Shown piece after piece: positions 3,154 to 24,502 of a stretch of DNA of 24,533 nt. The DNA is taken from positions 1 through 24,533 of IMG/VR virus record IMGVR_UViG_3300020045_000128; one strand, 5' to 3'. The first letter of the stretch is position 1. Every line of letters begins with the position of its first letter. This stretch comes from a virus. Lineage: Duplodnaviria; Caudoviricetes. The notes beneath the pieces are model-generated. The model was given only the letters and a program-made list of their open reading frames with translations, was not told where the DNA came from and made no database searches. Made by a program: the position numbers and the translations under genes.

Positions 3154-4628
3154 TAATTAGTTCCTTTATTAATATCAACCTCAATGTCTTGAATGCGCAT
3201 AGGGTAATTATCAGAGTAAGTAAATTTAAAAATACGTTGTCTAAACCAACCAAGTTGTCTTGTACAAGATAAATCTTGTTTTAAATTGACAAGTCTAGCG
3301 GTACTAAATGTTTCATAGTCATCATCACTCCATTGAATAGAAATATTACTATTTGCGGAAGGACGATCACCTAAAATAGAAAGTCTATGCATTGTTTTTC
3401 TATTTAATGTCCCAAAGTCATTAGCTTCAGTGATAATGCTACAAGTAAAATTTGTTCCTGAGTCTTGATAAACACTTTCATCAAATTTAAAAATCTGACT
3501 GGTGTTATTATCCAAAGCAAAATAAGTTCTTACATTAGCTGTACTAATTGCATTGTTTGACATTAAAATGTCAAAGGTAGAGTTGTTTTGAAAAGCAAAT
3601 CTAGTGACAAGTCCACTATCTACATCAATAGCCCAGCTTTTACCACTGCCTGCATTTACTAAGTAGAAGGTATGCCCTTGAAAAGAAACAATTGCTCCTA
3701 TCCATGTACTAATACTGTCTGTAACAGTATTTAAATATCTACTAATTGAAGGACTTCCGATAGACTCAATTTTAAAATCTTTAAGCATGAATACATCGGG
3801 TTGTCCTGAAGCATCATTACCAATATAGTAAATAGTATTTCCATAAACAGCAAAGCCTGCAAGATAGGCATTAATCTTAACAGGCGTGTCGTTTCTTTGC
3901 CACGGACTGTCAGGAGCAGGATTTGCTGCATCCCAAAAGTATTCTACTGAGGTCTTACCAAAAGCAATAATGTAGTTGTTTAGTTTAGCAATCTTTACAA
4001 TTTTATCTGCTTCCATTTCAGTTGCAATAAAAGTATCTGCTGTAAAGACTAAAGGGTCATTTAGATCACTGTTCCATAAATTAGCTGTATTAGTTTCAGC
4101 AATAAATAAATAGCCATCTAAGAAAACAGGAGTAGGATGATGTGTTGGAATATCAACATCGGAACTAGTAACTACAGTGTTTGAAGTATCAATAGAAACA
4201 AGACCCGTGGTTGCTGTGCCATCACTTGCAATTACTTTAACAGTACCATCATCATAAAGAAACTCACAGAAACCTACAGCACCAGAGCTACTTGTAAAGA
4301 CATTTGTGAGAGTTGTACTTGCGGCTGTATTTACATTATAAATGTAAACGTTACGACCAACACAATAAAACAATTTACTTTCATCTGCCCAAAAATACAT
4401 TCCACGAATATTAGAGGCCCCTACAGAAGCAACAGCACTTACAGTACCACAACGTTTAATGATAAACCGTCTTTGATCTCCTGTTTTATTTTGTTTAACT
4501 ACTTCCATAAAAACATTTAGGTAGTCTTCGTCTTTACCTGCAAGACCCCCATCTCGCGTAGCAATTTCACGAAATAAAGACACCCGTTCAGAAGAATAGG
4601 TATCCTGTGTAGGTGCTTTGCTGTACAT
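3153..4628 (-). CDS. P22 gp10-like tail hub / packaged DNA stabilization protein
   Basis: 491 aa, beta-propeller-like; motifs VFLDGYLF, IAFGKTSVEYF, GHTFYLV, ISIQWSDD, RQLGWFRQRIFKF typical of gp10; follows the gp4-like gene. Confidence 0.85.
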   Translation of the reverse strand: MYSKAPTQDTYSSERVSLFREIATRDGGLAGKDEDYLNVFMEVVKQNKTGDQRRFIIKRCGTVSAVASVGASNIRGMYFWADESKLFYCVGRNVYIYNVNTAASTTLTNVFTSSSGAVGFCEFLYDDGTVKVIASDGTATTGLVSIDTSNTVVTSSDVDIPTHHPTPVFLDGYLFIAETNTANLWNSDLNDPLVFTADTFIATEMEADKIVKIAKLNNYIIAFGKTSVEYFWDAANPAPDSPWQRNDTPVKINAYLAGFAVYGNTIYYIGNDASGQPDVFMLKDFKIESIGSPSISRYLNTVTDSISTWIGAIVSFQGHTFYLVNAGSGKSWAIDVDSGLVTRFAFQNNSTFDILMSNNAISTANVRTYFALDNNTSQIFKFDESVYQDSGTNFTCSIITEANDFGTLNRKTMHRLSILGDRPSANSNISIQWSDDDYETFSTARLVNLKQDLSCTRQLGWFRQRIFKFTYSDNYPMRIQDIEVDINKGTN

Positions 4629-5017
4629 TATAAAAATTCCTTAAGGTATTTAATTCCATTTTCCAGAGTCTCTATCTTATCTCTAGCACTACCTAACATA
4701 CTATTACAATGATTACATAATAGACCACGTACTATACCAGTAGCATGGCAGTGGTCCACACATAGAGGCCGAACATCCCCGTTTCTATTTTTACAGGTTT
4801 CCTCTTTAAAACAAATTGCACATTTATTGTCTTGTTTTTTTACCAACTCAAAGTGATCTTCGGCTGACAGGTTATACAATCTTTTTCTTTGTGCTTTTCT
4901 AGAGTTCTCTAAGAGTGTTTCTTTGTTTTTTATCGCATACTCTTGGAAATACTCTTTCCATTTATAATGGTTTCTTTTTCTACACGCCTTTAAGTCTTCT
5001 TTATTTTTGTAAGGCAT
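4628..5017 (-). CDS. Recombination endonuclease VII family (His-Me) homing-type endonuclease
   Basis: QDNKCAIC...LCVDHCHATGIVRGLLCNHCNSMLG signature. Confidence 0.92.
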   Translation of the reverse strand: MPYKNKEDLKACRKRNHYKWKEYFQEYAIKNKETLLENSRKAQRKRLYNLSAEDHFELVKKQDNKCAICFKEETCKNRNGDVRPLCVDHCHATGIVRGLLCNHCNSMLGSARDKIETLENGIKYLKEFL

Positions 5018-5709: not shown

Positions 5710-5724
5710 TGGTTTTTTATAAAA

Positions 5725-6486
5725 TTAAACACATTCTAAAACAACATCTAAGTGCTGCAAAACAGGTGTTTCTAATCCAGCACTCATTTGAAGTGTTGTA
5801 GATACAAAAAGACTATTTGTATCTAGATCAGAAACAGTTACAGAAAACGCTTGTTGAGAAGCTTGTACACCACTAAAAGCACTTAGTCCAGTAGATGGAG
5901 TTGTATTACCCACCGCTCCTAAATGCTGTAAAGTTGTTGCGTTAACTCTGCGAAAATCTTTTAGTGACCCTACTGATTTATTTGCTCCAGTAAGAGCACT
6001 GGAAGAAAATAAAATAGTATCTGAAGTAGTCCCAGCAGTTCCTATACGAATTCTAATTTGTAAAGTATCTGCGGTACCATTTTTTTCATATGCAAATTTA
6101 AAAGCTAACCTATCTCCATTTTTAGTTAGAAGATTCATAGGTAAAGTAAATTGATCCATAATTTGCTCTAGACTATTAACAACACCTGTGACACTTAATG
6201 GAAGACTTCGGAGAAGTATTTTACCACCTTCAGGCCGCCAATTAGTACCATTGTACATCCATAGACTAGGACCAATACCCAAATTTGTTACAATAAATTG
6301 CTGTCCTGTGGTTGGACTAGATACAGCTAGCATATTTGTATAAGTACCTGTTGTAGCACCACCTGCTAGGTTAGCAATAGCTTGTGTTGTGGTACGTACA
6401 GTTGATCCACTTTGCACAATCGGAACTAATTCAGTTCCAGTAAGACTACCCCCTACTGTTAAATTAGAAATCTTTGTATTTGCCAT
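5725..6486 (-). CDS. Virion fibre/appendage protein
   Basis: N-terminal ANTKISNL...LTGTELVPIVQSGSTVRTT anchor motif common in phage fibres; beta-rich body. Confidence 0.6.
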   Translation of the reverse strand: MANTKISNLTVGGSLTGTELVPIVQSGSTVRTTTQAIANLAGGATTGTYTNMLAVSSPTTGQQFIVTNLGIGPSLWMYNGTNWRPEGGKILLRSLPLSVTGVVNSLEQIMDQFTLPMNLLTKNGDRLAFKFAYEKNGTADTLQIRIRIGTAGTTSDTILFSSSALTGANKSVGSLKDFRRVNATTLQHLGAVGNTTPSTGLSAFSGVQASQQAFSVTVSDLDTNSLFVSTTLQMSAGLETPVLQHLDVVLECV

Positions 6487-6488
6487 TC

Positions 6489-6923
6489 TTACTCCAAAAT
6501 TAAAAGTAAATCATCTTCTGTAAGAAGAACATCTCCAAGTTCAGTAAGGAGATAAAAGGTTTCTACTGGAACAATAGAATTAACTTGTCCATGACCATTT
6601 CCAGAAAGATCAAAAAGCATTTGATAAGTATAAGTATTATTATCAGCTTGCATACAGTCTGCTGTTCCCATATCTGCATAACCTGATCGTGTAGTAATAT
6701 CACAATAAGAAACAAAGACAGGAGTATTATCCTTACTTACAATATCTGGAAATGCTTTTTCTCCATGAACTTTAATTAATGTTTGAGGGTGACGGGGCTC
6801 ATAGTCTTTTTTACAAACATACAGCCCTGTCCATTCTTTTTTAATTTCAGTAGAAGGAAACCAAAACCCGCACCGATGGCAGGCCATTTTGTATCCTTTA
6901 CCGGGCCATCCAATACGTTTCAT
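6489..6923 (-). CDS. Conserved phage protein, Cys-containing N-terminus and LLTE-repeat C-terminus
   Basis: CHRCGF...WTGLYVC..DYEPRHPQ; C-terminal YLLTELGDVLLTEDDLLLILE; SD AAGGAA upstream. Confidence 0.65.
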   Translation of the reverse strand: MKRIGWPGKGYKMACHRCGFWFPSTEIKKEWTGLYVCKKDYEPRHPQTLIKVHGEKAFPDIVSKDNTPVFVSYCDITTRSGYADMGTADCMQADNNTYTYQMLFDLSGNGHGQVNSIVPVETFYLLTELGDVLLTEDDLLLILE

Positions 6924-6948
6924 AAAGTTCCTTTTTATTCCCCACCGG

Positions 6949-6961
6949 CAGGGGCTTGGAA
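6949..6961. repeat. Left copy of an imperfect inverted repeat bounding the GC-rich cassette (CAGGGGCTTGGAA)
   Basis: Reverse complement TTCCAAGCCCCTG matches 8221-8233 TTACCAGCCCCTG at 11/13; lies 1 nt past the TGA stop. Confidence 0.7.
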
Positions 6962-6962
6962 G

Positions 6963-8402
6963 TCAGGCGGCGTAGGGCTGGATCAGCGCCCAGATGCGTG
7001 CTGCTAGGTCGGTATACCCGGCCGGCGTCATGTGGTTGTTGTCCTCGTTCACGCCCCCGGTCCAGTTGCCCACCGAGTCACCGTAGATCTGCAGCGGAGA
7101 CAGCCAGGGCACATTGAGCCCTGCCACGAACGCCTCGAAGTCGAGTGCCATTGCCATCTGCGCCGGCATGCCGGCAGGCCCCACGGGGAAGATGCTCACG
7201 ATCGCCGGGATGATTCCAAGTTCACGGCAGCGGTTGACGTGCTGCAGGACGCGCCACTTTGCGGCGGCCATCGTCGCTTCGGTTGGGGCGCCGTCATTGA
7301 TCGTGTAGCCCAGGAACACCGACACGCCCGGCTGCACGCCAGCCGAAAGAATCTCGGTTGCTCGCTGGAAGTAGGTGGCGCCGACTGCGCCGCCCTGCCC
7401 AGCTCGCGTGGCCTTGAGCTTCACGCCAGCAGACAGTGCGGCCTGCTCGATCTTGGTGGTCAGCGTGCGATAGGTGGTCGCACTCTCAGCCGCAGGCACC
7501 GAGAAGAACCGACTGTCGCCACACATCAGGAACGTCGGCTTGCGGTCGGTGGTGTAGCACTCGATGATGAACGGCATCACCGCCGAGTCGCTGAATGCTG
7601 GCGTGCTGGCTTGATTCCAGCCGGCGATGGTGCCCACATAGTCGCCCGAGCTTCGGTTGGCCCCCAGCACCACAGCCGGGCCGCACTCGGCCAGGAACTT
7701 GGTGGTGTCGGCAAAACCGCTGTAGCTGCAGCGCGTGAAGTAACCGGCGCCGGGGTAGACGCGGATCAGCAGGGGATACCAGCCGGTGAAACGGGCAGTC
7801 GGGTCGGATGCCAGTTCGCGCGCTTGCACCGGGATCAGGTCGGACCAGGCCACGTCCACCAGATTGGCGCCCAGGTCGGACGCCGCCCCCGTGGCGTTGC
7901 CGCCCCAGGTGACAGCCTGCCAGCCATCGGCCGAAAGCTCGTTCTTTTCCACGCCAGCCCGCATCGGCGTGATGAACTTCTTGGCGGCCGTGGTGTTCGT
8001 GTTGGTCAGGTCGCCGATTTCATCGGTGGCGGCAACCAGGGCTTTCAGCCCCGACAGCGCACCGTTGCCACCCAGGTGGGGCCAGCCGATGCGGACAGCG
8101 GAGAACTTGACCGGCAGCATGATGCACTGCACGTAGTTCGTGCTGTTCACGCTGTTGTCCACGTTGGCATAGCTGCCAGAGAAGGCCGACAGGTGCACGG
8201 GGCGCAGCGGCAGGCCACGATTACCAGCCCCTGTCACCAAGGTTTGGATTTCTGACCAAACCTCTCCATTACAAACAGCTTTATTTGTTGGACTGTTCCC
8301 TACATTAGCAAAACAACCAACATAATCAACAGGAGGAAATTTAGAAGTAAGTTCTTCAATGGTAGAGTAACTACCAACAAAACCATTTACTTGACGTGCC
8401 AT
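6963..8402 (-). CDS. Virion-associated SGNH/GDSL esterase-domain fibre (putative polysaccharide deacetylase)
   Basis: SGNH blocks CGDSR, AGQGG, GYTIND, DNNHMTPAGY; AT-rich ~57-codon N-terminal anchor fused to a GC-rich body. Confidence 0.85.
   Translation of the reverse strand: MARQVNGFVGSYSTIEELTSKFPPVDYVGCFANVGNSPTNKAVCNGEVWSEIQTLVTGAGNRGLPLRPVHLSAFSGSYANVDNSVNSTNYVQCIMLPVKFSAVRIGWPHLGGNGALSGLKALVAATDEIGDLTNTNTTAAKKFITPMRAGVEKNELSADGWQAVTWGGNATGAASDLGANLVDVAWSDLIPVQARELASDPTARFTGWYPLLIRVYPGAGYFTRCSYSGFADTTKFLAECGPAVVLGANRSSGDYVGTIAGWNQASTPAFSDSAVMPFIIECYTTDRKPTFLMCGDSRFFSVPAAESATTYRTLTTKIEQAALSAGVKLKATRAGQGGAVGATYFQRATEILSAGVQPGVSVFLGYTINDGAPTEATMAAAKWRVLQHVNRCRELGIIPAIVSIFPVGPAGMPAQMAMALDFEAFVAGLNVPWLSPLQIYGDSVGNWTGGVNEDNNHMTPAGYTDLAARIWALIQPYAA
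8221..8233. repeat. Right copy of the imperfect inverted repeat (TTACCAGCCCCTG), inside the CDS at peptide VTGAGN
   Basis: Coincides with the abrupt GC-to-AT transition. Confidence 0.7.
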
Positions 8403-12237: not shown

Positions 12238-12723
12238 TTATTCCTTAAAAATTGCAACAACGTCTTCGGGATTAAATTTATTACCTTTACTTGCATTTTG
12301 CTTTCTTGTAAGCATTTGCAAATTTTCTGGTATATGTAAACCACAAACTAATTCATGTTGAATTGGAATAATATGATCTACTTCTAATCCACGTCGTCTT
12401 GCTAGGTCGTAAAATTCTTCTATATAAAAAAGATCCCACTCTGTTAAACTTGCTAAAGAGGCTTCTTTCATTCTAGAAACCCTAGTAGCGGCTTTTGCAT
12501 AGTAATAATCTTTATTTTTATAATAGTAATTACTGCTCGTTTGTGCACGTACACCTGGATTATTTTGTAACCACTTTTCTTGTGATTGTTTATTTTTATC
12601 TGGATGTTTTTGTCTATAAGCAGTTTTACTACATTTAGAAGAACAGTATTTTCTTTGATGCGGCCAATTACGTGTGTATCTAGGTAATGGACACTCAGCA
12701 TTACAAATAATGCATTTATTCAT
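12238..12723 (-). CDS. HNH homing endonuclease
   Basis: CxxC...YCSSKC N-terminus; EVDHIIPIQHELVCGLHIPENLQMLTRKQNASKGN. Confidence 0.9.
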   Translation of the reverse strand: MNKCIICNAECPLPRYTRNWPHQRKYCSSKCSKTAYRQKHPDKNKQSQEKWLQNNPGVRAQTSSNYYYKNKDYYYAKAATRVSRMKEASLASLTEWDLFYIEEFYDLARRRGLEVDHIIPIQHELVCGLHIPENLQMLTRKQNASKGNKFNPEDVVAIFKE

Positions 12724-13036
12724 CTTTAAAAATACAAATTACATCCTCATCATTAATTACGAGGAAAATATCCTCGGAACCGGGTTCTTGAATAAACTTA
12801 CCACCAAACTTTGCGTATGCAATGGTGTCTCCTACAGTAAGTTCTCCTACATAATCCTCATGGCATTTAGAACCAATTTGGAGAACAGTACCTTTGTCAA
12901 CATTAATTTGCTCTTTACGCTCAGAAACTTCGGTAAGAATGATACCTGCTTTTTTAGCAGATTCAAACACCTTATCATGCTCTTGAATTTTAAAAGGTTT
13001 AACAAGGATTCTACATCCAGTGATTTTAATTGTCAT
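12716..13036 (-). CDS. groES: Phage co-chaperonin GroES (Cpn10)-like
   Basis: RILVKP...AGIIL...GTVLQIG...VGDTIAYAKFGG...LVINDEDVICI. Confidence 0.9.
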   Translation of the reverse strand: MTIKITGCRILVKPFKIQEHDKVFESAKKAGIILTEVSERKEQINVDKGTVLQIGSKCHEDYVGELTVGDTIAYAKFGGKFIQEPGSEDIFLVINDEDVICIFKDE

Positions 13037-13233: not shown

Positions 13234-15263
13234 TTTGCAGCCTCCTTTTGATGAGACATTTTCTGTTGATGGGCCTGTTCACTTTGAACCATGCCCTGCT
13301 GTGCTTTAGTGCGCTCTGCTGCACTAAAAATATTAGCCATCTGAATATCAGAGGCTGATTTAATCATTGCGGATTCTTCTTGCTGTTGCATTTTCTGTGC
13401 ATGAGCTTGAGCTTCCATCATCATTTTTTGTTCGGCATTCCGACCTTCTAATTCCATTTTGGCTTGTTTAGCTTGAATGTCTACAGCAGCCTTTTGTTGG
13501 TCTGCTTTCATTTTAGCTTGAATTGCCATCATCTTAGGATCAGGAGGAGGGGGAGGAACTTGTCCAGACTGTTGAACCTCATCACTAAACAGTTCTTGCC
13601 AATTAGGCTGTTCCTGGGCTTCTAGCACCCTTGAGAGCACTTTAACTGGATTAAGCATGGGGCCAGCTACTTGTAACATTTCCATGAGTCCTTGCGCCTT
13701 CATCAACTTCTCCTGCTGTGAGGCTGCATTGGGATCAGCTCCTGGAGCTACATCGCAAGCACTTTTATCAAAATCATCTGGACCAATTTCCATATCAATT
13801 ACATTAATGTATTTGTTAGGATCGGTATACAGTTTGTTAAGTTCAAAAATCTTATCAAACTCTTGAGACAAAGCACGAAAGATTCGTTTGTAAACAGCAG
13901 TGAATACTTTCATACCTTGCTCTACTGTAGCCATTGTGGTAGTCGCTGGGGTATTTTGCCCTGGCATCTTACCCGTAAAGATTTCTGCTACGGATGCCAG
14001 TTCTTTGCCAGAGGTAATAAGGGTCCCCATGAGTTGGAAGAGTACGGAAGAGGGTTCTTTTGTGGGAAGAGGTACAATTTGCTTGCGAAGGTCGTCGGCT
14101 GTTGCATTAACAGGCCGCCATTCACCGGGACGCAAAGACTGGTCACCCATCTTAACTCGTAAAGCTTTTCCGATAAATCCTGACTGAAGGTTGTGTAAGT
14201 GTCCACTATCCACCAATTGGTTAATGAGGGTATTTACTGATTCGTTAATTGGGCCAAGAAGGACACCAAAGCCAATATCATAAAAAGACCCATCTGGATT
14301 AGGAATAAAGCCAAATTTGGTGTACATTTGAATTGGCTTAATGCGTGCAATCTTTTTAGTATCTTCTTTAAGAATAACATCATCTAAAAGATAGCGTCTG
14401 CTAATTCGTAAGAGTTTACCTGAAGAATAGTCAAATGTTACAATGTAAGGCTCAGCATAATCATCACCATCTAAATCTAGGAAAGTATGTTGCTCTACAA
14501 TAGTGTAAGGTAAGCTTGAACTATTAGTGTCTGCATCATTAGGCATCAAATGGTTCTCAGCAACAGGATCACCTAAATCCAAATCTTCATACACTCCCAT
14601 ATTTTGACGCTCTTTAAGCAGTCTAGGAGACATATGAATGACTTCAGAGATTCTTTCTGATTCTTCTAAATTGGTTGTCCAATAATTAACAACTAAGTAT
14701 TTAGGAAGAATAAGTTTGCTTTTAATTTTATCTTCTGTTTTATCATACCATGTCTTTTTAAACATAGTACCAACAATAGGAAGCATCATTAGCATTTTAT
14801 CCATGTCTTCTTCCCAGCCAGACATTTCATGCATTACTTGATAAGACATGTAGGTAGAAACACGTTGGGCTTTTTCATACTTTTGCCCATCAATATCTTT
14901 ACCAATTACTACACTGTTAACAATCTTTCCATTAGAGGGAACAAGAGAGGGATAGGACCTAGCTGCAAATTGCATTGCTGCTGTGGCAACAATGGGGTAT
15001 TTAACATTAGAAGCCCCAGGCCAAGGATAAGTTTTATCTTGTTTTGTTTGTTTTGCTAAAGCAATCCAATCATCAATATTACTTTCCCATTCACCTCTAC
15101 TACGCAAATCATCATCAAAAGCCGCTTTACATTCCGCAGCAACTGCCTCTTGTTTTTCTTTTGAAAGTGTCTTTAAAATGTTTTCTACAGGAAGAGGAGG
15201 GTCAGTATCCGCAGATTGTGCTGGCACCTGACTTTCCATATCCTGATTGTTGTAATTCATCAT
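13188..15263 (-). CDS. Portal protein, copy A (start probably ATG 15263 or 15260)
   Basis: PWPGASNVKYP, AAMQFAAR, GTMFKKTWYD, FYDIGFG, NQLVDSG, Q/M-rich C-terminal helix; follows TerL; GAGG SD before MMNYNN. Confidence 0.92.
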   Translation of the reverse strand: MMNYNNQDMESQVPAQSADTDPPLPVENILKTLSKEKQEAVAAECKAAFDDDLRSRGEWESNIDDWIALAKQTKQDKTYPWPGASNVKYPIVATAAMQFAARSYPSLVPSNGKIVNSVVIGKDIDGQKYEKAQRVSTYMSYQVMHEMSGWEEDMDKMLMMLPIVGTMFKKTWYDKTEDKIKSKLILPKYLVVNYWTTNLEESERISEVIHMSPRLLKERQNMGVYEDLDLGDPVAENHLMPNDADTNSSSLPYTIVEQHTFLDLDGDDYAEPYIVTFDYSSGKLLRISRRYLLDDVILKEDTKKIARIKPIQMYTKFGFIPNPDGSFYDIGFGVLLGPINESVNTLINQLVDSGHLHNLQSGFIGKALRVKMGDQSLRPGEWRPVNATADDLRKQIVPLPTKEPSSVLFQLMGTLITSGKELASVAEIFTGKMPGQNTPATTTMATVEQGMKVFTAVYKRIFRALSQEFDKIFELNKLYTDPNKYINVIDMEIGPDDFDKSACDVAPGADPNAASQQEKLMKAQGLMEMLQVAGPMLNPVKVLSRVLEAQEQPNWQELFSDEVQQSGQVPPPPPDPKMMAIQAKMKADQQKAAVDIQAKQAKMELEGRNAEQKMMMEAQAHAQKMQQQEESAMIKSASDIQMANIFSAAERTKAQQGMVQSEQAHQQKMSHQKEAAKSSQQKNSNNGSGTK

Positions 15264-16731
15264 TGTATTCCTCGTCTTCCATTTCTTGTGGGGTTGGCGC
15301 CTCAACGAGCGAATCCAACATAAGTCCTAAATAGGATAGGGCATCTACTTGGTCATCATGCGTGTCTCTAGGAAAGCGTGTACACTCATCTTCAAACGTT
15401 TGATACCAATCTTGTTCTTTATTAAAAAATACAGTGTGGGCACGTATACGGGCTTGCATACTACGTCCTCGTGCAATCTTATCCTTACCACCATGTTTTA
15501 ATGGTTTAATGTTTAAGAACACACCTGTTTTTAACATCTCTTCTCGAAGAAAAGGGCCAATAGATTTAGATACTTGCATTTCTTCAATACCAACAATCTC
15601 AGGATCATATGCACGTTGGAGGTTAATTAGGGTATCTACAATATCTCTACCATCAAGTCGTTCACGAATAACATCAAGAATAAAGATTCTTTTATATTCA
15701 TCAATACCTGAAATTAGAAATACTGAGTAGTCAGCTTTCTCACTTTCAGAAATAGCCAAGTCAACTGTAATATAAATATGTAGTTTCTGTTGACTATGCT
15801 CTTCTTTCATTTCTAAGAAGTCTTTACGTTTATAGTAAGCAACAGACTCATCTACAGGATAATTTAAATACTCTTGACTGTAGGCATCAGGGATACCCTG
15901 TGCAATATACCCTTCTCGGGTTTCCTTTAGTTTTTCTTTAGGCCATCGATCAGGCCAAAGAATTTTAGTAAAATCTTCATTGTGAGCACGATATTTAATA
16001 CTAAACCAACCACCTGCTACAAGCTTTTCTGCATATAGTTTTAATGGGGTATTGACACTCCATTTATCCCATTGCTTAGGCATAAGCCTTTCTAGCAAAC
16101 TATCCATGTGAAGAATAGTACCCACAATACGAATAACACCAGTGGAACTTAAACATGGAAGTAAAGCAGAATAAAACCAACGTCTCATCTTCTCTCTTCG
16201 ATCTTTGTTTAACACTAACTCATCGTTTTCCATATCGTCACAGAGAATAATATCAGGACGAGTACCATTCCAAATCAAACCACGTAGTTTTTGTTCAGCA
16301 CCTTTAGCAATAATACGAAACTTATGCCCATCAGCAAACTGAACAATAATATCACTTTCAGTGTCTTTAATGAAAATAACCTTACCATTTTCATCTCGCT
16401 TTAAATTAAACAAATTAATCAAAGCATCGTTGTCTTGTAAATGTTCTTTAAAGAAACCTAGGAACATCATTGCCTGGGCCTCAGTGTCAGAAACTAACAG
16501 CATAAACTTACGCTGTCTAAACATTAAAGTAGCAAGGCCATATGAAACAGTAATACCTGTTGTTTTTGCGTGACCACGCGGTGCGCTAAGTGCTACTTTA
16601 GTATATTTACTGCAACAAATATCCCAAGCTTCTTTGTGAAAAGCTGGGGTTTCTACAGCACCTTCAAACTTACTTGATAACACTGTACGAACAAAACCAG
16701 CAATTACATCACTATTAAGCACTACGCTCAT
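15202..16731 (-). CDS. terL: Terminase large subunit, copy A
   Basis: Walker A APRGHAKTT, Walker B IILCDDMEND, nuclease ITVDLA and HDDQVDA. Confidence 0.95.
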   Translation of the reverse strand: MSVVLNSDVIAGFVRTVLSSKFEGAVETPAFHKEAWDICCSKYTKVALSAPRGHAKTTGITVSYGLATLMFRQRKFMLLVSDTEAQAMMFLGFFKEHLQDNDALINLFNLKRDENGKVIFIKDTESDIIVQFADGHKFRIIAKGAEQKLRGLIWNGTRPDIILCDDMENDELVLNKDRREKMRRWFYSALLPCLSSTGVIRIVGTILHMDSLLERLMPKQWDKWSVNTPLKLYAEKLVAGGWFSIKYRAHNEDFTKILWPDRWPKEKLKETREGYIAQGIPDAYSQEYLNYPVDESVAYYKRKDFLEMKEEHSQQKLHIYITVDLAISESEKADYSVFLISGIDEYKRIFILDVIRERLDGRDIVDTLINLQRAYDPEIVGIEEMQVSKSIGPFLREEMLKTGVFLNIKPLKHGGKDKIARGRSMQARIRAHTVFFNKEQDWYQTFEDECTRFPRDTHDDQVDALSYLGLMLDSLVEAPTPQEMEDEEYNDELQQSGYGKSGASTICGY

Positions 16732-18356: not shown

Positions 18357-18899
18357 TTAATGACTGTACCCCATTTTGTCAAGATAATCTGCAATTTTAC
18401 GATGTTCTTCAGCACTACCGTCATTTTTTAAACGATTGGCTCTCCAAGAAATGATCTGAACATTTCCTTTAACATACCCAGCACTAGGATCTATCTGGTC
18501 AAATGAGCAACTATTTTCTTGCCTACCTTCTGCAAAGTAGTCAATTTTAATCCCAAGGATGGGGCAAAACGCAGGAAAGTCAAGCTCACCAAACGCTACG
18601 GTAAAGACCTTTCCTTCTTGTTTAGCCCTGCTTTTCTTACTTCTATACTTAGCTCTGTGTGCTCTGTACAAATCAGAGTCTTCTTTTTGACCCCATTTTT
18701 TATTATATTTTTCAGCATGATGTTGTGCTTTTAGCTTTAAGCCTACTTGCTCAATCTCATACTTAGCAAAGATTTGTTTGATACGCTGTTTAGAGACCTC
18801 GTATTTCTCAGCAATTGCTACCATAGTAAGTCCACTTTTTGTAAGCTCTTTTAAAAATGGAACTTCTTGTTCCCAGTTGATTCGTGAAGTAAAAGACAT
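18357..18899 (-). CDS. HTH plus His-Me/HNH-like endonuclease (180 aa); start revised to ATG 18899
   Basis: GLTMVAIAEKYEVSKQRIKQI (sigma70 region-4-like HTH); CPILG...SFDQIDPSAGYVKGNVQIISWRANRLKND; SD AGGAG. Confidence 0.8.
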   Translation of the reverse strand: MSFTSRINWEQEVPFLKELTKSGLTMVAIAEKYEVSKQRIKQIFAKYEIEQVGLKLKAQHHAEKYNKKWGQKEDSDLYRAHRAKYRSKKSRAKQEGKVFTVAFGELDFPAFCPILGIKIDYFAEGRQENSCSFDQIDPSAGYVKGNVQIISWRANRLKNDGSAEEHRKIADYLDKMGYSH

Positions 18900-18929
18900 T
18901 AATTCTCCTATATTTAACTTTATCCTATT

Positions 18930-18958
18930 ATTATACACTACTGGGGCTTGTATGTCAA
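18930..18958 (-). promoter_or_regulatory. Consensus sigma70 promoter for the central HTH-HNH gene
   Basis: Perfect TTGACA (18958-18953), 17 nt spacer, TATAAT (18935-18930). Confidence 0.85.
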
Positions 18959-18984
18959 GAGATATTTATGGTACAATAGATGTA
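18948..18984 (+). promoter_or_regulatory. Rightward promoter for packaging operon B
   Basis: TTGTAT-18 nt-TACAAT with extended -10 (TGg), followed by AGATGTA as in the leftward promoter. Confidence 0.7.
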
Positions 18985-19035
18985 ATCTATTTCCTCTACA
19001 AGGAAAACAATGTTTCAGCTTCCTAAGAAGGACTT

Positions 19036-19806
19036 ATGGCTAAAGAATTCTCATTAAAAAATACAGCGCTCTCTATGAAGAGAGCTAAGGTAGAAATGCA
19101 TAAACCTGGATACAAGTTCTCTGTAGAGAAACGCATTGAGGTGATTTCTACATGGCTTGCCCTAGGCAACTTACGTCAGACATCTGTGCTATGTGGAGTG
19201 TCCTACGACCTCTGCTGCAAGTGGCGCGTACAGCCTTGGTGGCAACAGATGCAGGCTGAAATTGAAGCTGCACGAAAACACAAAGTTGACAACAAGCTTA
19301 ACAAAATTGTTGACAAGGCCCTCGGGGCCATTGAGGACAGACTGGACAACGGCGATTATGTCTACAACCAAAAGAGCGGAGAAGTTACACGAAAGCCTGT
19401 CTCCATCAAGGAAGCTCGCGGTGTGGCAAACGACCTTATGCAACGACAAATTGCCCTCTCTAAGCTGGAAGTAGAAACACAACATGCTTCTTCAGCCAAC
19501 ACCGTAAAAGATCAAATAGCTCTTCTTGCAGAAGAGTTTGCCAAGTTTAACACTAGACGAACAATAGAGGTATTACCAAATGCCATATCAAATTCGGGAA
19601 GCTCCATGCAAAAAGTGCAATCTTCCGAACCAGAAGACGCGTCTGAAATTGAATACACAGAACAAGACTCAGAAATATTATCTTCTGACGACATGTTCGA
19701 CATGCGAGAGGAAGGCGACGAAACTCCACCAACAGAACAACAAGAGCTACTGGCAGAGTATGAATCGCAAGAGTTATCAAAACTGGACTCCGGAGTATTA
19801 CGCTAA
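19036..19806 (+). CDS. Putative terminase small subunit, copy B, with acidic C-terminal extension
   Basis: LALGNLRQTSVLCGVSYDLCCKWRVQPWW and DRLDNGDYVYNQKSGEVTRKPVSIKEA align with copy A. Confidence 0.7.
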   Translation: MAKEFSLKNTALSMKRAKVEMHKPGYKFSVEKRIEVISTWLALGNLRQTSVLCGVSYDLCCKWRVQPWWQQMQAEIEAARKHKVDNKLNKIVDKALGAIEDRLDNGDYVYNQKSGEVTRKPVSIKEARGVANDLMQRQIALSKLEVETQHASSANTVKDQIALLAEEFAKFNTRRTIEVLPNAISNSGSSMQKVQSSEPEDASEIEYTEQDSEILSSDDMFDMREEGDETPPTEQQELLAEYESQELSKLDSGVLR

Positions 19807-20050
19807 ACGACTTTTGGAATCAAACTGTCGGCATAAGCGATTAAAAGGTATGTCTTGGGATCAAGAGCTTACAGAGTTTGTCACAGAAGAAGCCCACAAA
19901 CTACGGGCTCTACGAAAAGAAGCTACAGGTTTTGAGTGGCATGTTGACCATATTATTCCACTAAACGGGAAGAAAGTATCCGGTCTACACATCTGGAATA
20001 ATTTACAGGTTATCCCTGCTTCAGTAAATCTGAGCAAGGGAAATCGTTAG
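19580..20050 (+). CDS. HNH homing endonuclease
   Basis: CxxC...CxxC N-terminus; WHVDHIIPLNGKKVSGLHIWNNLQVIPASVNLSKGNR; SD GAGGT upstream. Confidence 0.9.
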   Translation: MPYQIREAPCKKCNLPNQKTRLKLNTQNKTQKYYLLTTCSTCERKATKLHQQNNKSYWQSMNRKSYQNWTPEYYAKRLLESNCRHKRLKGMSWDQELTEFVTEEAHKLRALRKEATGFEWHVDHIIPLNGKKVSGLHIWNNLQVIPASVNLSKGNR

Positions 20051-20995: not shown

Positions 20996-22485
20996 TTTTA
21001 ACAGCCGCAGTGGTACATGGGTTTAGCCAATCTATGCTACAGAAAAACTTTGATGCGGCTTCTGATTCTCCAGCCTGTCATTTAGAATGGTGGGAATTGT
21101 TCTGTAACAAGCATCCACAGGTAGCTATCAGTGCCCCACGTAACCATGCAAAAAGTACAGCCCTAACCTATTCCTATACGCTAGCTGCTGTATTGTTTCG
21201 AGAGCGTAGTTATGTGCTTATTGTCTCTGACACTGTTTCACAGGCTTCTCAATTCCTAAATGACATTAAGCAATGTCTTGCAGAGAATGAGCAAATTAGA
21301 AGCTTGTTTAAAATTAAAGAGTTTCTAAAAGATACAGAGGATGACATCATTGTCATCTGTGAAGATGGTCACATGTTTCGCATTCAGGCTAAGGGTGCTG
21401 AACAGAAGCTTCGTGGTTTGAAGTGGAATAATAAACGTCCTGATCTCATCATGTGCGACGACTTGGAAAATGACGAAATCGTTATGAACAAGGAACGGCG
21501 TGAAAAGTTTAGACGTTGGTTCTATGGTGCTTTGCTACCCTGTAAGAGTGTCTCAGGAATCATTCGCTATGTAGGAACTATTCTGCACACTGACTCTATG
21601 TTGGAATCTATTATGCCTAAACCATATCAAAAGGGCACAATAGTTACTCCATTAAAGACGTATACAGAAAAGCGTAACAGTTGGATTGCTGTAAAATATC
21701 GAGCACACACAGATGACTTTAAAAGCATCTTGTGGCCTGAGCGTTATACCAAAGACTACTTTATTGACAAGCGTAATGAGTATTTAGAGCAAGGCATTCC
21801 AGATGTCTACTCTATGGAATATTTAAATATTCCTATTGATGAGTCTGTTGCTTTCTTCAAAAGACGTGACTTTGTTCACATGACCGAAGAAGACAAGAAG
21901 AAGAAGCTTAATTATTACATTACGGCTGACTTAGCCATTTCACAAGCAGAGCATGCTGACTATTCAGTGTTTATTGTTGGTGGAATGGACGAAAACCGTA
22001 CACTCTTTATTAAGGAAGTTATTAGAGATCGTCTAGATGGACGAGAAATTGTTGATATGATATTGACATTGGAAAATCTCTACAAACCAGAGGCATTTGG
22101 CATTGAAGAAATGCAGGTGTCTAAGGCCATTGGGCCTTTCCTTCGTGAAGAGATGGTAAAAACTGGTATTTTCCCCAACTTAGTTAAGCTAAAACATGGT
22201 GGAAAAGACAAAATCTCTAGAGCACGCTCTATTCAAGCCCGTATTCGAGCCCTTGGTGTCAAGTTTAACAAAGCTGGTGAATGGTATCAGACATTTGAAG
22301 ACGAAATGTGCTCATTCCCACGCTCAAAACATGATGACCAAGTGGACTCAATGTCCTATTTAGGTATGCTTCTTGATTCTATGATTGAAGCCCCAACAAA
22401 ACAAGAGGAAGAAGATGACGCCTATGCCGATGAATATGAACGAAACATCGGGGAATCCGGCAGAAGCGCAGTCTGCGGCTACTGA
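20992..22485 (+). CDS. terL: Terminase large subunit, copy B
   Basis: Walker A APRNHAKST, Walker B LIMCDDLEND, nuclease ITADLA and HDDQVDS. Confidence 0.95.
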   Translation: MILTAAVVHGFSQSMLQKNFDAASDSPACHLEWWELFCNKHPQVAISAPRNHAKSTALTYSYTLAAVLFRERSYVLIVSDTVSQASQFLNDIKQCLAENEQIRSLFKIKEFLKDTEDDIIVICEDGHMFRIQAKGAEQKLRGLKWNNKRPDLIMCDDLENDEIVMNKERREKFRRWFYGALLPCKSVSGIIRYVGTILHTDSMLESIMPKPYQKGTIVTPLKTYTEKRNSWIAVKYRAHTDDFKSILWPERYTKDYFIDKRNEYLEQGIPDVYSMEYLNIPIDESVAFFKRRDFVHMTEEDKKKKLNYYITADLAISQAEHADYSVFIVGGMDENRTLFIKEVIRDRLDGREIVDMILTLENLYKPEAFGIEEMQVSKAIGPFLREEMVKTGIFPNLVKLKHGGKDKISRARSIQARIRALGVKFNKAGEWYQTFEDEMCSFPRSKHDDQVDSMSYLGMLLDSMIEAPTKQEEEDDAYADEYERNIGESGRSAVCGY

Positions 22486-24502
22486 GCAGGAGCTTCCTAG
22501 CCTACGTTCTTTTGTAGAATCTAAAAACATTGCTGAAAGCCTTAAAGAAGAACAACTTCGTGAAATTGCTTCACAAGTGTCTGAAGGCTTTGAATATGAT
22601 TTGTCAACCCGTGAATCATGGGAACAAAATATTGACGATTGGACTAAGCTAGCTCTACAAGTAAAAGAAGAAAAAAGCTGGCCTTGGCCTAAGGCCGCTA
22701 ATGTCAAATATCCGCTACTTTCTACAGCGGCTATGCAGTTTAATGCTCGTGCCTATCCTTCACTTATCCCTGCTAACGGCGATATTGTAAAGGTAGAGGT
22801 TAAGGGCAAAGATAAAACTGGAGAAAAGCTGGAACGTGCTAAGCGCATTAGCTCTTACATGTCTTACCAGCTTCTCTATGACATGTGCGGTTGGGAAGAG
22901 GACATGGACAAGCTGCTAATGATGCTTCCCATCATTGGCACTGTCTTCAAGAAGACCTATTACAATCCTGTAAAACACATTAATGTTTCTGAACTGGTTC
23001 TTCCTAAGAACCTAGTTGTCAATTACTGGGCTAAAAGCCTAGAAGATGCAGAGCGCATTAGTGAAATCATTCCTATGACAAAGCGACTTGTCAAGGAGAA
23101 GATGATGTCAGGTAGCTTCTTGGATGTTGAGCTTGGTGAGCCTATCCCAGATCCTAAATACATTACCGTTGCAACCCTGCAGGATGCCTCTACACCCTAT
23201 CAAATCGTAGAGCAGCACACCTACCTAGACCTAGACGATGATGGCTATGCAGAGCCTTACATTGTAACCTTTGAACGGACTAGTCGTGAAGTATTGCGCA
23301 TTGTTGCACGCTTTGATGAAGACACTATCTTTACAGATGACGAAGGCACTCTATTACGTATTGAGCCTATTTCGTACTACACTAAATTCGGATTTATTCC
23401 AAATCCTGATGGCGGCTTCTATGACATTGGTTTTGGGCTTCTTCTTAGCCCTATTAATGAAAGTGTTAACACCCTAATTAACCAGCTTATTGATGCAGGT
23501 ACTATTAACAACTTGCAGGGTGGTTTCTTAGGTAAAGGGCTTAAGCTTAAGATGGGTGAAACCCGTTGGCAGCCCGGTGAATGGAAACCAGTTAATAGCA
23601 CTGCTGACGACTTACGAAAACAAATTGTTCCTCTTCCAACAAAGGAACCATCGGCTGTCTTATTCCAACTAATGGGTAGTCTCATTACTTCTGGTAAAGA
23701 ACTAGCATCTGTAGCAGAGATTTTTGTGGGTAAGATGCCTGGACAAAACACTCCTGCCACTACAACGATGGCTACCATTGAACAAGGTATGAAGGTATTC
23801 ACTGCTGTGTACAAGCGTGTGTATCGGTCCTTGCGAGAAGAGTTTAAAAAGATTTATACACTAAACCGTGTATACCTAGATCCTGATAAATATATTGCTG
23901 TAGTAGATACAGAAATTGGTCCTTCAGACTTTGATAAAGAAAGCTATGATGTCTGTCCTGCAGCAGATCCATCAATTGCTACTTCTACAGAGAAACTGAT
24001 GAAGGCTCAAGGATTACTAGAACTCCTGTCTACAGGTATTCTAGATCCTATTGAAGTGGTTAGACGGGTGCTAGAGGCTCAAGAGCAGCCAAACCCAGAG
24101 CTACTATTCAGTAAGGAAATTCAAGAGTCTGGTCAAATGCAACCTCCTCCAGATCCTAAGCTGCAAGAAATGCAGATGAAGGGGCAGATGGAACAGCAAA
24201 AGTTTGCGCTACAAGCACAGCAATCTGAACGTAAGGCAATGCTAGATGAGCGTAGCCAACAAACTCAACTTGCTATGAAAGCACAAGAACACAACTTGAA
24301 TATGCAGGCTGCAGCACAGAAAGCACAGCTTTCAGCAGCAGAAGCAATTCATAAGCAACGAATCTTTAGTGTTACAGAGCAGGCTAAAGTAAATCAGCAG
24401 TTAGTACAAAAGGACCAACAGCATAGACAAAACCTCCAGCAGAAAAAGGAGCTAACATCAGTATCCAACAAGAACTCGAAGCCTGGAAATCAGAAAAAGT
24501 AA
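22415..24502 (+). CDS. Portal protein, copy B (start probably ATG 22415)
   Basis: PWPKAANVKYP, AAMQFNAR, GTVFKKTYY, FYDIGFG, GKMPGQNTPATTTMAT; GAGG SD 6 nt upstream. Confidence 0.92.
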   Translation: MTPMPMNMNETSGNPAEAQSAATEQELPSLRSFVESKNIAESLKEEQLREIASQVSEGFEYDLSTRESWEQNIDDWTKLALQVKEEKSWPWPKAANVKYPLLSTAAMQFNARAYPSLIPANGDIVKVEVKGKDKTGEKLERAKRISSYMSYQLLYDMCGWEEDMDKLLMMLPIIGTVFKKTYYNPVKHINVSELVLPKNLVVNYWAKSLEDAERISEIIPMTKRLVKEKMMSGSFLDVELGEPIPDPKYITVATLQDASTPYQIVEQHTYLDLDDDGYAEPYIVTFERTSREVLRIVARFDEDTIFTDDEGTLLRIEPISYYTKFGFIPNPDGGFYDIGFGLLLSPINESVNTLINQLIDAGTINNLQGGFLGKGLKLKMGETRWQPGEWKPVNSTADDLRKQIVPLPTKEPSAVLFQLMGSLITSGKELASVAEIFVGKMPGQNTPATTTMATIEQGMKVFTAVYKRVYRSLREEFKKIYTLNRVYLDPDKYIAVVDTEIGPSDFDKESYDVCPAADPSIATSTEKLMKAQGLLELLSTGILDPIEVVRRVLEAQEQPNPELLFSKEIQESGQMQPPPDPKLQEMQMKGQMEQQKFALQAQQSERKAMLDERSQQTQLAMKAQEHNLNMQAAAQKAQLSAAEAIHKQRIFSVTEQAKVNQQLVQKDQQHRQNLQQKKELTSVSNKNSKPGNQKK

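Follow-up and report, generated by a model that had tools for sequence, protein, structure and literature searches.

How did an AT-rich phage come to carry a GC-rich enzyme cassette that is fused in frame to one of its own genes and ends at sharp borders? The window, i.e., the whole stretch of DNA analysed here, is an entire virus record of 24.5 kb (ca. 51% complete), and no recombinase was found anywhere in it, in agreement with the original prediction. The record carries a podovirus-like structural module on the minus strand with terminase, portal, major capsid protein, adaptor and head-closure genes. The gene in question, whose predicted reading frame is present, is flanked by the capsid genes on one side and the head-tail adaptor on the other (Table 1).

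Composition and borders of the fusion gene

The abrupt flip from AT-rich to GC-rich DNA noticed earlier at ca. 6940 and ca. 8235 was borne out by a two-state segmentation, which placed the GC change points at 6940 (2-log-likelihood interval 6937-6945) and 8238 (8219-8257). Along the gene, GC3 was 0.14 in codons 1-50, 0.50 in codons 51-60 and 0.84 in codons 61-479, i.e., a native-style start is followed by a foreign-style remainder, as had been read from codon usage. An imperfect inverted repeat had been described at the two edges, and its arms indeed match at 11 of 13 positions, with the 3' arm starting 1 nt past the stop codon. Considered by itself, this repeat is weak, as shuffled sequences matched as well or better in 0.75%, 3.2% and 10.8% of cases (search ranges of ±20, ±30 and ±50 nt, respectively, direct or inverted), and its reality was decided by comparative data.

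The cargo was predicted to be an SGNH enzyme. Its structure model (pLDDT 76) matched the beta-sandwich and SGNH carbohydrate esterases 9kr1, 7toj and 7tog (E ~1e-11), and the Ser, Gly, Asn and His block residues (Table 1) were invariant across 15 aligned cargo sequences, although searches of Pfam and the PDB with the sequence gave no match. Thus, fold and block residues uphold the SGNH assignment, whereas sequence families do not add to it, and the modelled cargo has the features of an SGNH carbohydrate esterase. For anchor residues 1-64, no confident structure model was obtained. The cargo of a relative with the same anchor (P0015) matched a tail-fibre PHROG. The proposed role of the window cargo as the tip of a fibre is putative, the gene being located in the structural module. 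Single-protein locus searches with the cargo returned nothing, as did genome alignment, and a metagenome scan with the anchor gave one weak match of 27 residues. Among the protein relatives of the cargo, no near-identical donor of the cassette was found, the best reaching 69%.

Table 1. Positions of the fusion gene, its parts, the flanking sites and other features in the window.
Feature	Position	Strand	Remarks
Fusion gene: phage-native anchor and imported esterase cassette	6963..8402	-	479 aa
Anchor, codons 1-57, up to the end of the 5' spacer	8232..8402	-	AT-rich; GC3 0.14
Cassette between both centres	6951..8231	-	GC 0.65 versus 0.34-0.35 on either side
Predicted beta-sandwich domain, ca. 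residues 67-285	7548..8204	-	model and fold search
Predicted SGNH esterase domain, ca. residues 290-479	6966..7535	-	S297, G337, N369, H457; model and fold search
5' site	8222..8248	-	outer arm 8239-8248; centre GGTGACA 8232-8238; inner arm 8222-8231
3' site, beginning 2 nt past the stop	6934..6960	-	inner arm 6951-6960; centre TGCCGGT 6944-6950; outer arm 6934-6943
Left repeat of the original prediction	6949..6961	+	3'-site inner arm, 2 nt of centre and 1 nt beyond
Right repeat of the original prediction	8221..8233	-	5'-site inner arm, 2 nt of centre and 1 nt beyond
Genes interrupting the structural module, GroES-like or HNH/endonuclease VII-like (listed jointly)	12716-13036, 4628-5017, 12238-12723, 18357-18938, 19580-20050		

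Two further features of the record were observed. The structural module is interrupted by a gene for a GroES-like co-chaperonin and by several HNH or endonuclease VII-like genes. Additionally, two related terminase-portal modules (13530-16368 and 21328-24163), which share 66% identity over 2.9 kb, are divergently oriented, and the record may either join two related podoviruses near 18950-19030 or carry a natural duplication.

Sites at the cassette boundaries and exchange in relatives

Each boundary of the cassette is a complete site of 27 bp, in which a 10-bp arm and its inverted counterpart enclose a 7-bp centre, and the upstream and downstream GC change points coincide with the 5' and 3' sites, respectively. 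These are the only two sites called in the window. The 5' site is translated in frame as L-V-T-G-A-G. A reading of the two arms noticed originally as the terminal inverted repeats of one transposition-like element is not supported, each boundary being a full symmetric site with its own centre. A profile of the inner arms scored the outer arms best at exactly 7-bp spacing, including at 3' positions that no search pattern had fixed. The 5' outer arm scored 4.2 at 7 bp versus at most -2.2 at 12 other offsets, and the 3' outer arm scored -2.5 at 7 bp versus at most -3.7 elsewhere. As far as can be judged from the letters, this is the layout of a lambda-type core site, with two inverted putative binding arms around a 7-bp overlap.

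Among 16 protein relatives, 14 carried the same cargo behind other N-termini and two carried the same anchor with unrelated cargoes. Anchor identity was 97% in P0016, 95% in P0015 and 47% in P0017, the last of which lacks the junction peptide. Four blocks of the DNA encoding P0016 (L001) show 92%-97% identity to the window; both flanks of the cassette are 92%-93% identical, and at each of the two site boundaries the window's cassette gives way to a GC-rich LamG cassette. P0015 represents a third cassette on the same anchor. One anchor occurred with five different cassettes, and one cassette occurred behind three anchors. In a Leptothrix MAG, the same 2145-bp cassette (99.8%) was present in two unrelated prophages and ended at sites in both, these two loci holding the only two sites of each kind. 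One of the prophages has an HK97-like head module, and the other looks tailless and PM2-like by gene layout. A Paucibacter prophage (L314) has a relative of the window cargo (31% identity) between such sites, beside a recombinase gene. The coincidence of homologue breakpoints with the repeats, which had been proposed as a check of the original prediction, was thus observed, and a high-GC source of the cassette is supported. On these comparisons, the cassette of the window is an import, and unrelated phages have traded cassettes exactly at such sites.

A second module also differs between the two genomes (window ca. 5710-6590, a 253-aa gene; L001 3870-5690, a 571-aa gene), and its edges carry no sites of this keyed type. 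Given this variable module and the absence of the junction peptide from P0017, the backbone does not carry such sites as a rule.

The 5' centre of the family is GGTGTCA, and the 3' centres are TGCCGGT or TCCGCGA. The centre of the window clade, GGTGACA, is one base off the family form and was found in 1 of 76 sites, so that exchange with typical donors would need a tolerated mismatch. When the 5' site alone was used as the query, it was found at 89 viral loci, in frame as xVSGAG or xVSGGG. A 3' site followed downstream in 64 of 72 complete genes, at most 40 nt from the stop in 42 and after further genes in 22; of the eight genes without a 3' site by pattern, three had a variant site or a contig end. 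Among 1329 other stops, 16 matched, and all 16 were the ends of these cassettes. The 3' motif was found at 27 viral loci, in 16 of which it lay 0-2 nt past the stop of a reading frame that spans 100 codons or more. The motif pair is therefore enriched around other C-terminal domains, as the original prediction required. By Pfam, the 89 cargo proteins comprised 22 SGNH esterases, eight polysaccharide deacetylases, four lyases, four glycoside hydrolases, four LamG proteins, one PhoD and one FRG protein among the classes recognised, with no mobility enzyme. An FRG-domain gene was also seen in reverse between TCCGCGA and TGCCGGT sites beside an enzyme cassette (L075, 10082-11032; L090, 8988-9938). 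In genomes, a 5' site lay upstream of the 3'-site pattern in 3 of 37 matches. A scan of the host family for sites matched 43 of 401 genomes (control, 5), and since only 2 of the 30 loci inspected looked real, no chromosomal reservoir was seen there.

To locate the crossovers, 270 distinct sites were compared, which yielded 28 pairs with one flank shared (at least 90%) and the other unrelated (< 50%); these pairs are not independent, since a single backbone family takes part in 17 of them. On the side of the shared flank, the arm was identical in 25 of the 28 pairs, the other arm had an average of 2.6 mismatches, and in four pairs the first mismatch lay 0-1 nt from the centre. The centre itself was common to all 28 pairs, which is partly expected given the shared flank. 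In 25 of the 28 recombinant pairs, the swap is consistent with a crossover within the centre. The three exceptions include both window/L001 sites, which differ by one mismatch in the 5' outer arm and by 3 of 10 positions in the 3' outer arm despite the shared backbone; the window's own 3' site is thus exceptional.

A candidate recombinase and ordered site arrays

Neighbour clustering at 69 cassettes revealed one recurring non-structural family, a tyrosine recombinase found at six loci, where its gene follows the 3' site, in the same orientation, at a distance of 125-354 bp. The protein aligns to lambda Int residues 65-353 (E 3e-58). By Pfam, core-binding and catalytic domains are present, and the N-terminal arm-binding domain of lambda-type integrases is absent in five of five sequences, the alignment starting at residue 65. 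All catalytic residues (R-K-H-R-H-Y) are kept in 42 of 49 sequences, and the other seven were cut short or shifted in the single extracted frame. A reverse search with the recombinase gave 98 loci, in which near-identical genes were merged and at least 1.5 kb of upstream sequence was required. Cassette sites lay upstream on the same strand in 31 of 35 distinct genes at 55% identity or above (22 of 26 outside the discovery records), in 6 of 10 at 47%-55% and in 0 of 20 below 47%. The four unlinked genes in the first class lie at early-region arrays or array blocks. From this linkage and the intact catalytic residues, we predict that the enzyme acts on these sites. A serine recombinase was also considered as a candidate and set aside, with occurrence in 2 of 30 records.

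The named hosts of the recombinase are Roseateles, Pelomonas, Paucibacter, Pseudorhodoferax and Albidiferax, and among GenBank phages no close relative was found (best, 34%). Only 3 of 401 host-family genomes carry the gene, and the Leptothrix MAG with the copied cassette is not among them. Since the window record and G018, a complete related phage without any tyrosine recombinase, lack the enzyme as well, its supply in trans would be occasional. In Pelomonas margarita LKC17W, two loci (L319 and L328) share both site types and differ in the cassette that these enclose; each locus has a recombinase gene beside it, one of which is apparently broken. Additionally, a small opposite-strand gene (ca. 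55-60 aa) with a K-N-K-G-G-R-P type start lies 100-620 bp upstream of the recombinase in five of six loci checked (L246, L253, L288, L318 and L323) and possibly encodes a regulator or directionality factor.

When the arm-N7-arm pattern was scanned for with the centre left free, sites were found in rows, placed between small early genes and forming ordered arrays of up to 11 sites per phage; the shuffled DNA control gave 29 calls in 662 kb. The first series runs AGCAGAG, CGCGCCT, CGCAGTA, CGGTACA or TCACAGG, GCCGGTC, CATTGCC, TGCACCC and TGCCGAC, followed by the recombinase, and the centres of the second series are CGAACTC, GAAGCCT, CGCTTGA, GACGGTT and CCGCGCA. Among 101 sites in 19 records, a centre was repeated within a record once (G002) versus 14.1 times in shuffles, and the order was the same in 56 of 57 centre pairs in these records, with the centre list drawn from the same records, which favours both outcomes. 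The family recombinase was found in 5 of 15 records, one of them partial; it was not found in four array records, of which two were covered up to their final 1.2-1.4 kb. Near-identical stretches measuring 860 and 250 bp begin 4 nt away from the centre of a site, but only 10 of 32 early-array alignment ends fell within 16 nt of a site (expected share, 0.06), six of the ten being the recombinase gene start. Just ahead of the recombinase, early arrays have the centre TGCCGAC, and TGCCGGT takes this place in head regions (L254, L242, L243 and L249). Because these two centres share five of seven bases, the recombinase gene may have moved by an unlike-centre crossover.

Probable exchange between phage genomes and its alternatives

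We consider it likely that the cassette was acquired by natural recombinase-mediated cassette exchange (RMCE) between phage genomes, with the arm-less lambda-Int-like tyrosine recombinase acting in trans as the most likely agent. The original proposal of an exchange with a recombinase in trans is supported to this extent, the record itself being without the enzyme. For the window phage, the enzyme would come from a prophage or a co-infecting phage, would bind the arms and would require identical centres. A crossover between like centres of two phage DNAs would generate a cointegrate, and a second crossover at the other site pair would resolve it with the interval swapped. Because the two sites of one genome have different centres, neither excision nor inversion would take place in cis, and because the 5' site lies inside the gene, an incoming cassette without a start codon would be fused in frame to the resident anchor. 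The donor of the 65%-GC cassette might have been a temperate phage of a high-GC Burkholderiales host, and the recipient the AT-rich window phage. As the cargoes are mostly polysaccharide-acting enzymes, a swap would likely alter the host surface that the virion can attack. Such a mechanism would explain why the cassette is in frame and lacks a start codon, why its GC edges are sharp, why the circle junction is absent, why the centres are unique and why the enzyme is linked, and it would provide phages with an inherent means of exchanging host-attack enzymes and accessory genes.

On balance, and with less assurance, we favour a wider reading, in which freshwater Burkholderiales phages (tailed or tailless, temperate, AT-rich) have one recombinase and a set of more than 20 keyed sites in common, any matched interval can be swapped, and phages without the enzyme join the pool by means of two 27-bp sites. 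If true, phage mosaicism would be a programmed reaction, from the in-frame enzyme tip to a row of early genes. Sharp mosaicism at gene boundaries is an old open question and is usually ascribed to illegitimate or short-homology recombination and selection. With breakpoints, sites and a candidate enzyme all identified, a site-specific route is now testable, and it would explain the in-frame sharing of polysaccharide-degrading tips by unrelated phages. Multiplexed cassette exchange would also benefit from a small lambda-type recombinase that needs no accessory proteins and offers more than 20 natural centres.

As the main alternative, the sites might be operators of a recombinase-fold DNA-binding protein comparable to MrpR of SPbeta, and the swaps might arise by general short-homology recombination (linker/PeSL). 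MrpR binds a repeated element and has lost its activity (PMC10516654), and motifs around receptor-binding domains have been proposed as homologous hotspots (PMC10408124). An operator role would also suit the stop triplet found at most 6 nt before the left arm in 42 of 89 non-5' sites, many of which lie between a stop and a start, and the window/L001 3' crossover lies outside the centre. However, the candidate recombinase differs from MrpR in its largely intact catalytic residues, one site lies within coding sequence, and the centres are fixed per slot while the arms vary, which is the opposite of what an operator would show. General recombination is further disfavoured because mismatches as close as 0-1 nt confine the crossovers to 7 bp, a length too short for it. 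We therefore regard this explanation as unlikely.

Considerably less probable still is movement as an integron-like circle that is excised and integrated, or as a non-autonomous transposon or IS1111-type element with terminal repeats. The direct GGT shared by both ends together with the inverted inner arms, the presence of one cassette twice in one genome and the nested 3' ends in L111 and L075 would all fit such elements. Yet the arm-core-arm junction form had 0 matches in viral contigs, none of the 89 cargo proteins is a transposase or recombinase, and cassettes with TCCGCGA at their end have no core in common with the 5' end and so no duplicated core; the first two results also count against the transposition-like movement that had originally been considered. 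The 7-bp symmetric model, by comparison, explains both ends and more than 20 further centres. In genomes, the circle-junction pattern gave 30 scattered matches in many phyla, which were taken as chance by estimate. What we took early on to be a resemblance of the sites to gix/hix sites was dropped together with a 3-bp target-duplication model, as the 7-bp symmetric layout explains all ends. In integrons, a recombinase gene lies beside a row of small gene slots, with attC hairpins and interchangeable sites. The present system resembles them in that the recombinase gene adjoins a row of small gene slots, whereas no circle junction was found in viral contigs, the sites differ in centre, and the enzyme matched lambda Int and not IntI above the cut-off.

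An inversion switch, in which a shufflon-like flip of the cassette between its inverted arms turns the enzyme tip off and on, is scarcely credible: a flipped cassette would stay in frame for ca. 18 codons (ORF 6783-7007), and Rin, likewise a tyrosine recombinase without an arm-binding domain, is encoded beside an RBP anchor (PMC6109161), but the two ends have different centres, neither being the reverse complement of the other, spare cassettes were absent within 5 kb in 29 loci, and all 5'/3' site pairs examined are in the expressed orientation.

Returning to exchange between genomes, no description of the present system was found in the literature searched, with most subscription journals outside the search, and the closest known systems are the Acinetobacter dif modules and the Rin shufflon. 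On Acinetobacter plasmids, dif/pdif modules lie between tyrosine-recombinase sites with variable spacers, single modules are replaced by cointegrate formation and resolution at identical spacers, and one spacer mismatch is tolerated (PMC13141974). Those modules depend on host XerC/XerD, a 6-bp spacer and alternating C/D sites on plasmids (PMC13141974). In contrast, the present system has a phage-encoded lambda-Int-like enzyme, a 7-bp centre, one arm type, one in-gene site that gives fusion proteins, each centre once per genome and a shared order. Its arms do not resemble the pdif boxes given in PMC13141974, and the enzyme falls far below the XerC/XerD cut-offs. By replacing modules between matching spacers, the system appears to work like the dif modules without being one of them. 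The Rin shufflon of Bifidobacterium prophages likewise combines an arm-less tyrosine recombinase with a constant RBP N-terminus and a variable C-terminus, and it flips spare tips inside a single genome, at 11-bp sites that are identical (PMC6109161). Unlike Rin, the present system has no spare tips or inversion geometry, its centres differ, and exchange would be between genomes. With only two sites in the window and different centres, it does not fit the shufflons and invertases Rin, Rci, Gin and Min.

Other likenesses are more partial. The core sites of lambda and HK022 Int are palindromic with a 7-bp overlap; lambda-family integrases need identical overlaps, and that of HK022 Int may be arbitrary if it is identical between the partners (PMC7736782). 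In the present system, by contrast, the enzyme has no arm-binding domain, the arm sequence is its own, and the sites lie in head, tail or early regions and not at a prophage end. RMCE, which HK022 Int performs, is a laboratory use in lambda and HK022 (PMC7736782) and would be the natural role here. Tailspike-domain motifs (PMC10408124) and T4-type PeSL cassettes (PMC2839356) share with the present sites short conserved DNA at module edges across phage genera and swaps of receptor-binding or accessory genes. Those are proposed to be homologous hotspots or promoter-terminator units, with neither a dedicated enzyme nor keyed centres. We describe the system as spacer-matched module exchange. New in it are the model of a symmetric site with a 7-bp centre, the mapping of crossovers, the arrays that several phages share and the copy in two prophages of one genome.

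Well-formed arms with other centres, such as TCACCGG, were occasionally seen in L279 and L284, whose recombinases are relatives of 41%-47%, and in record G021 (L002). These sites possibly belong to a sister system.
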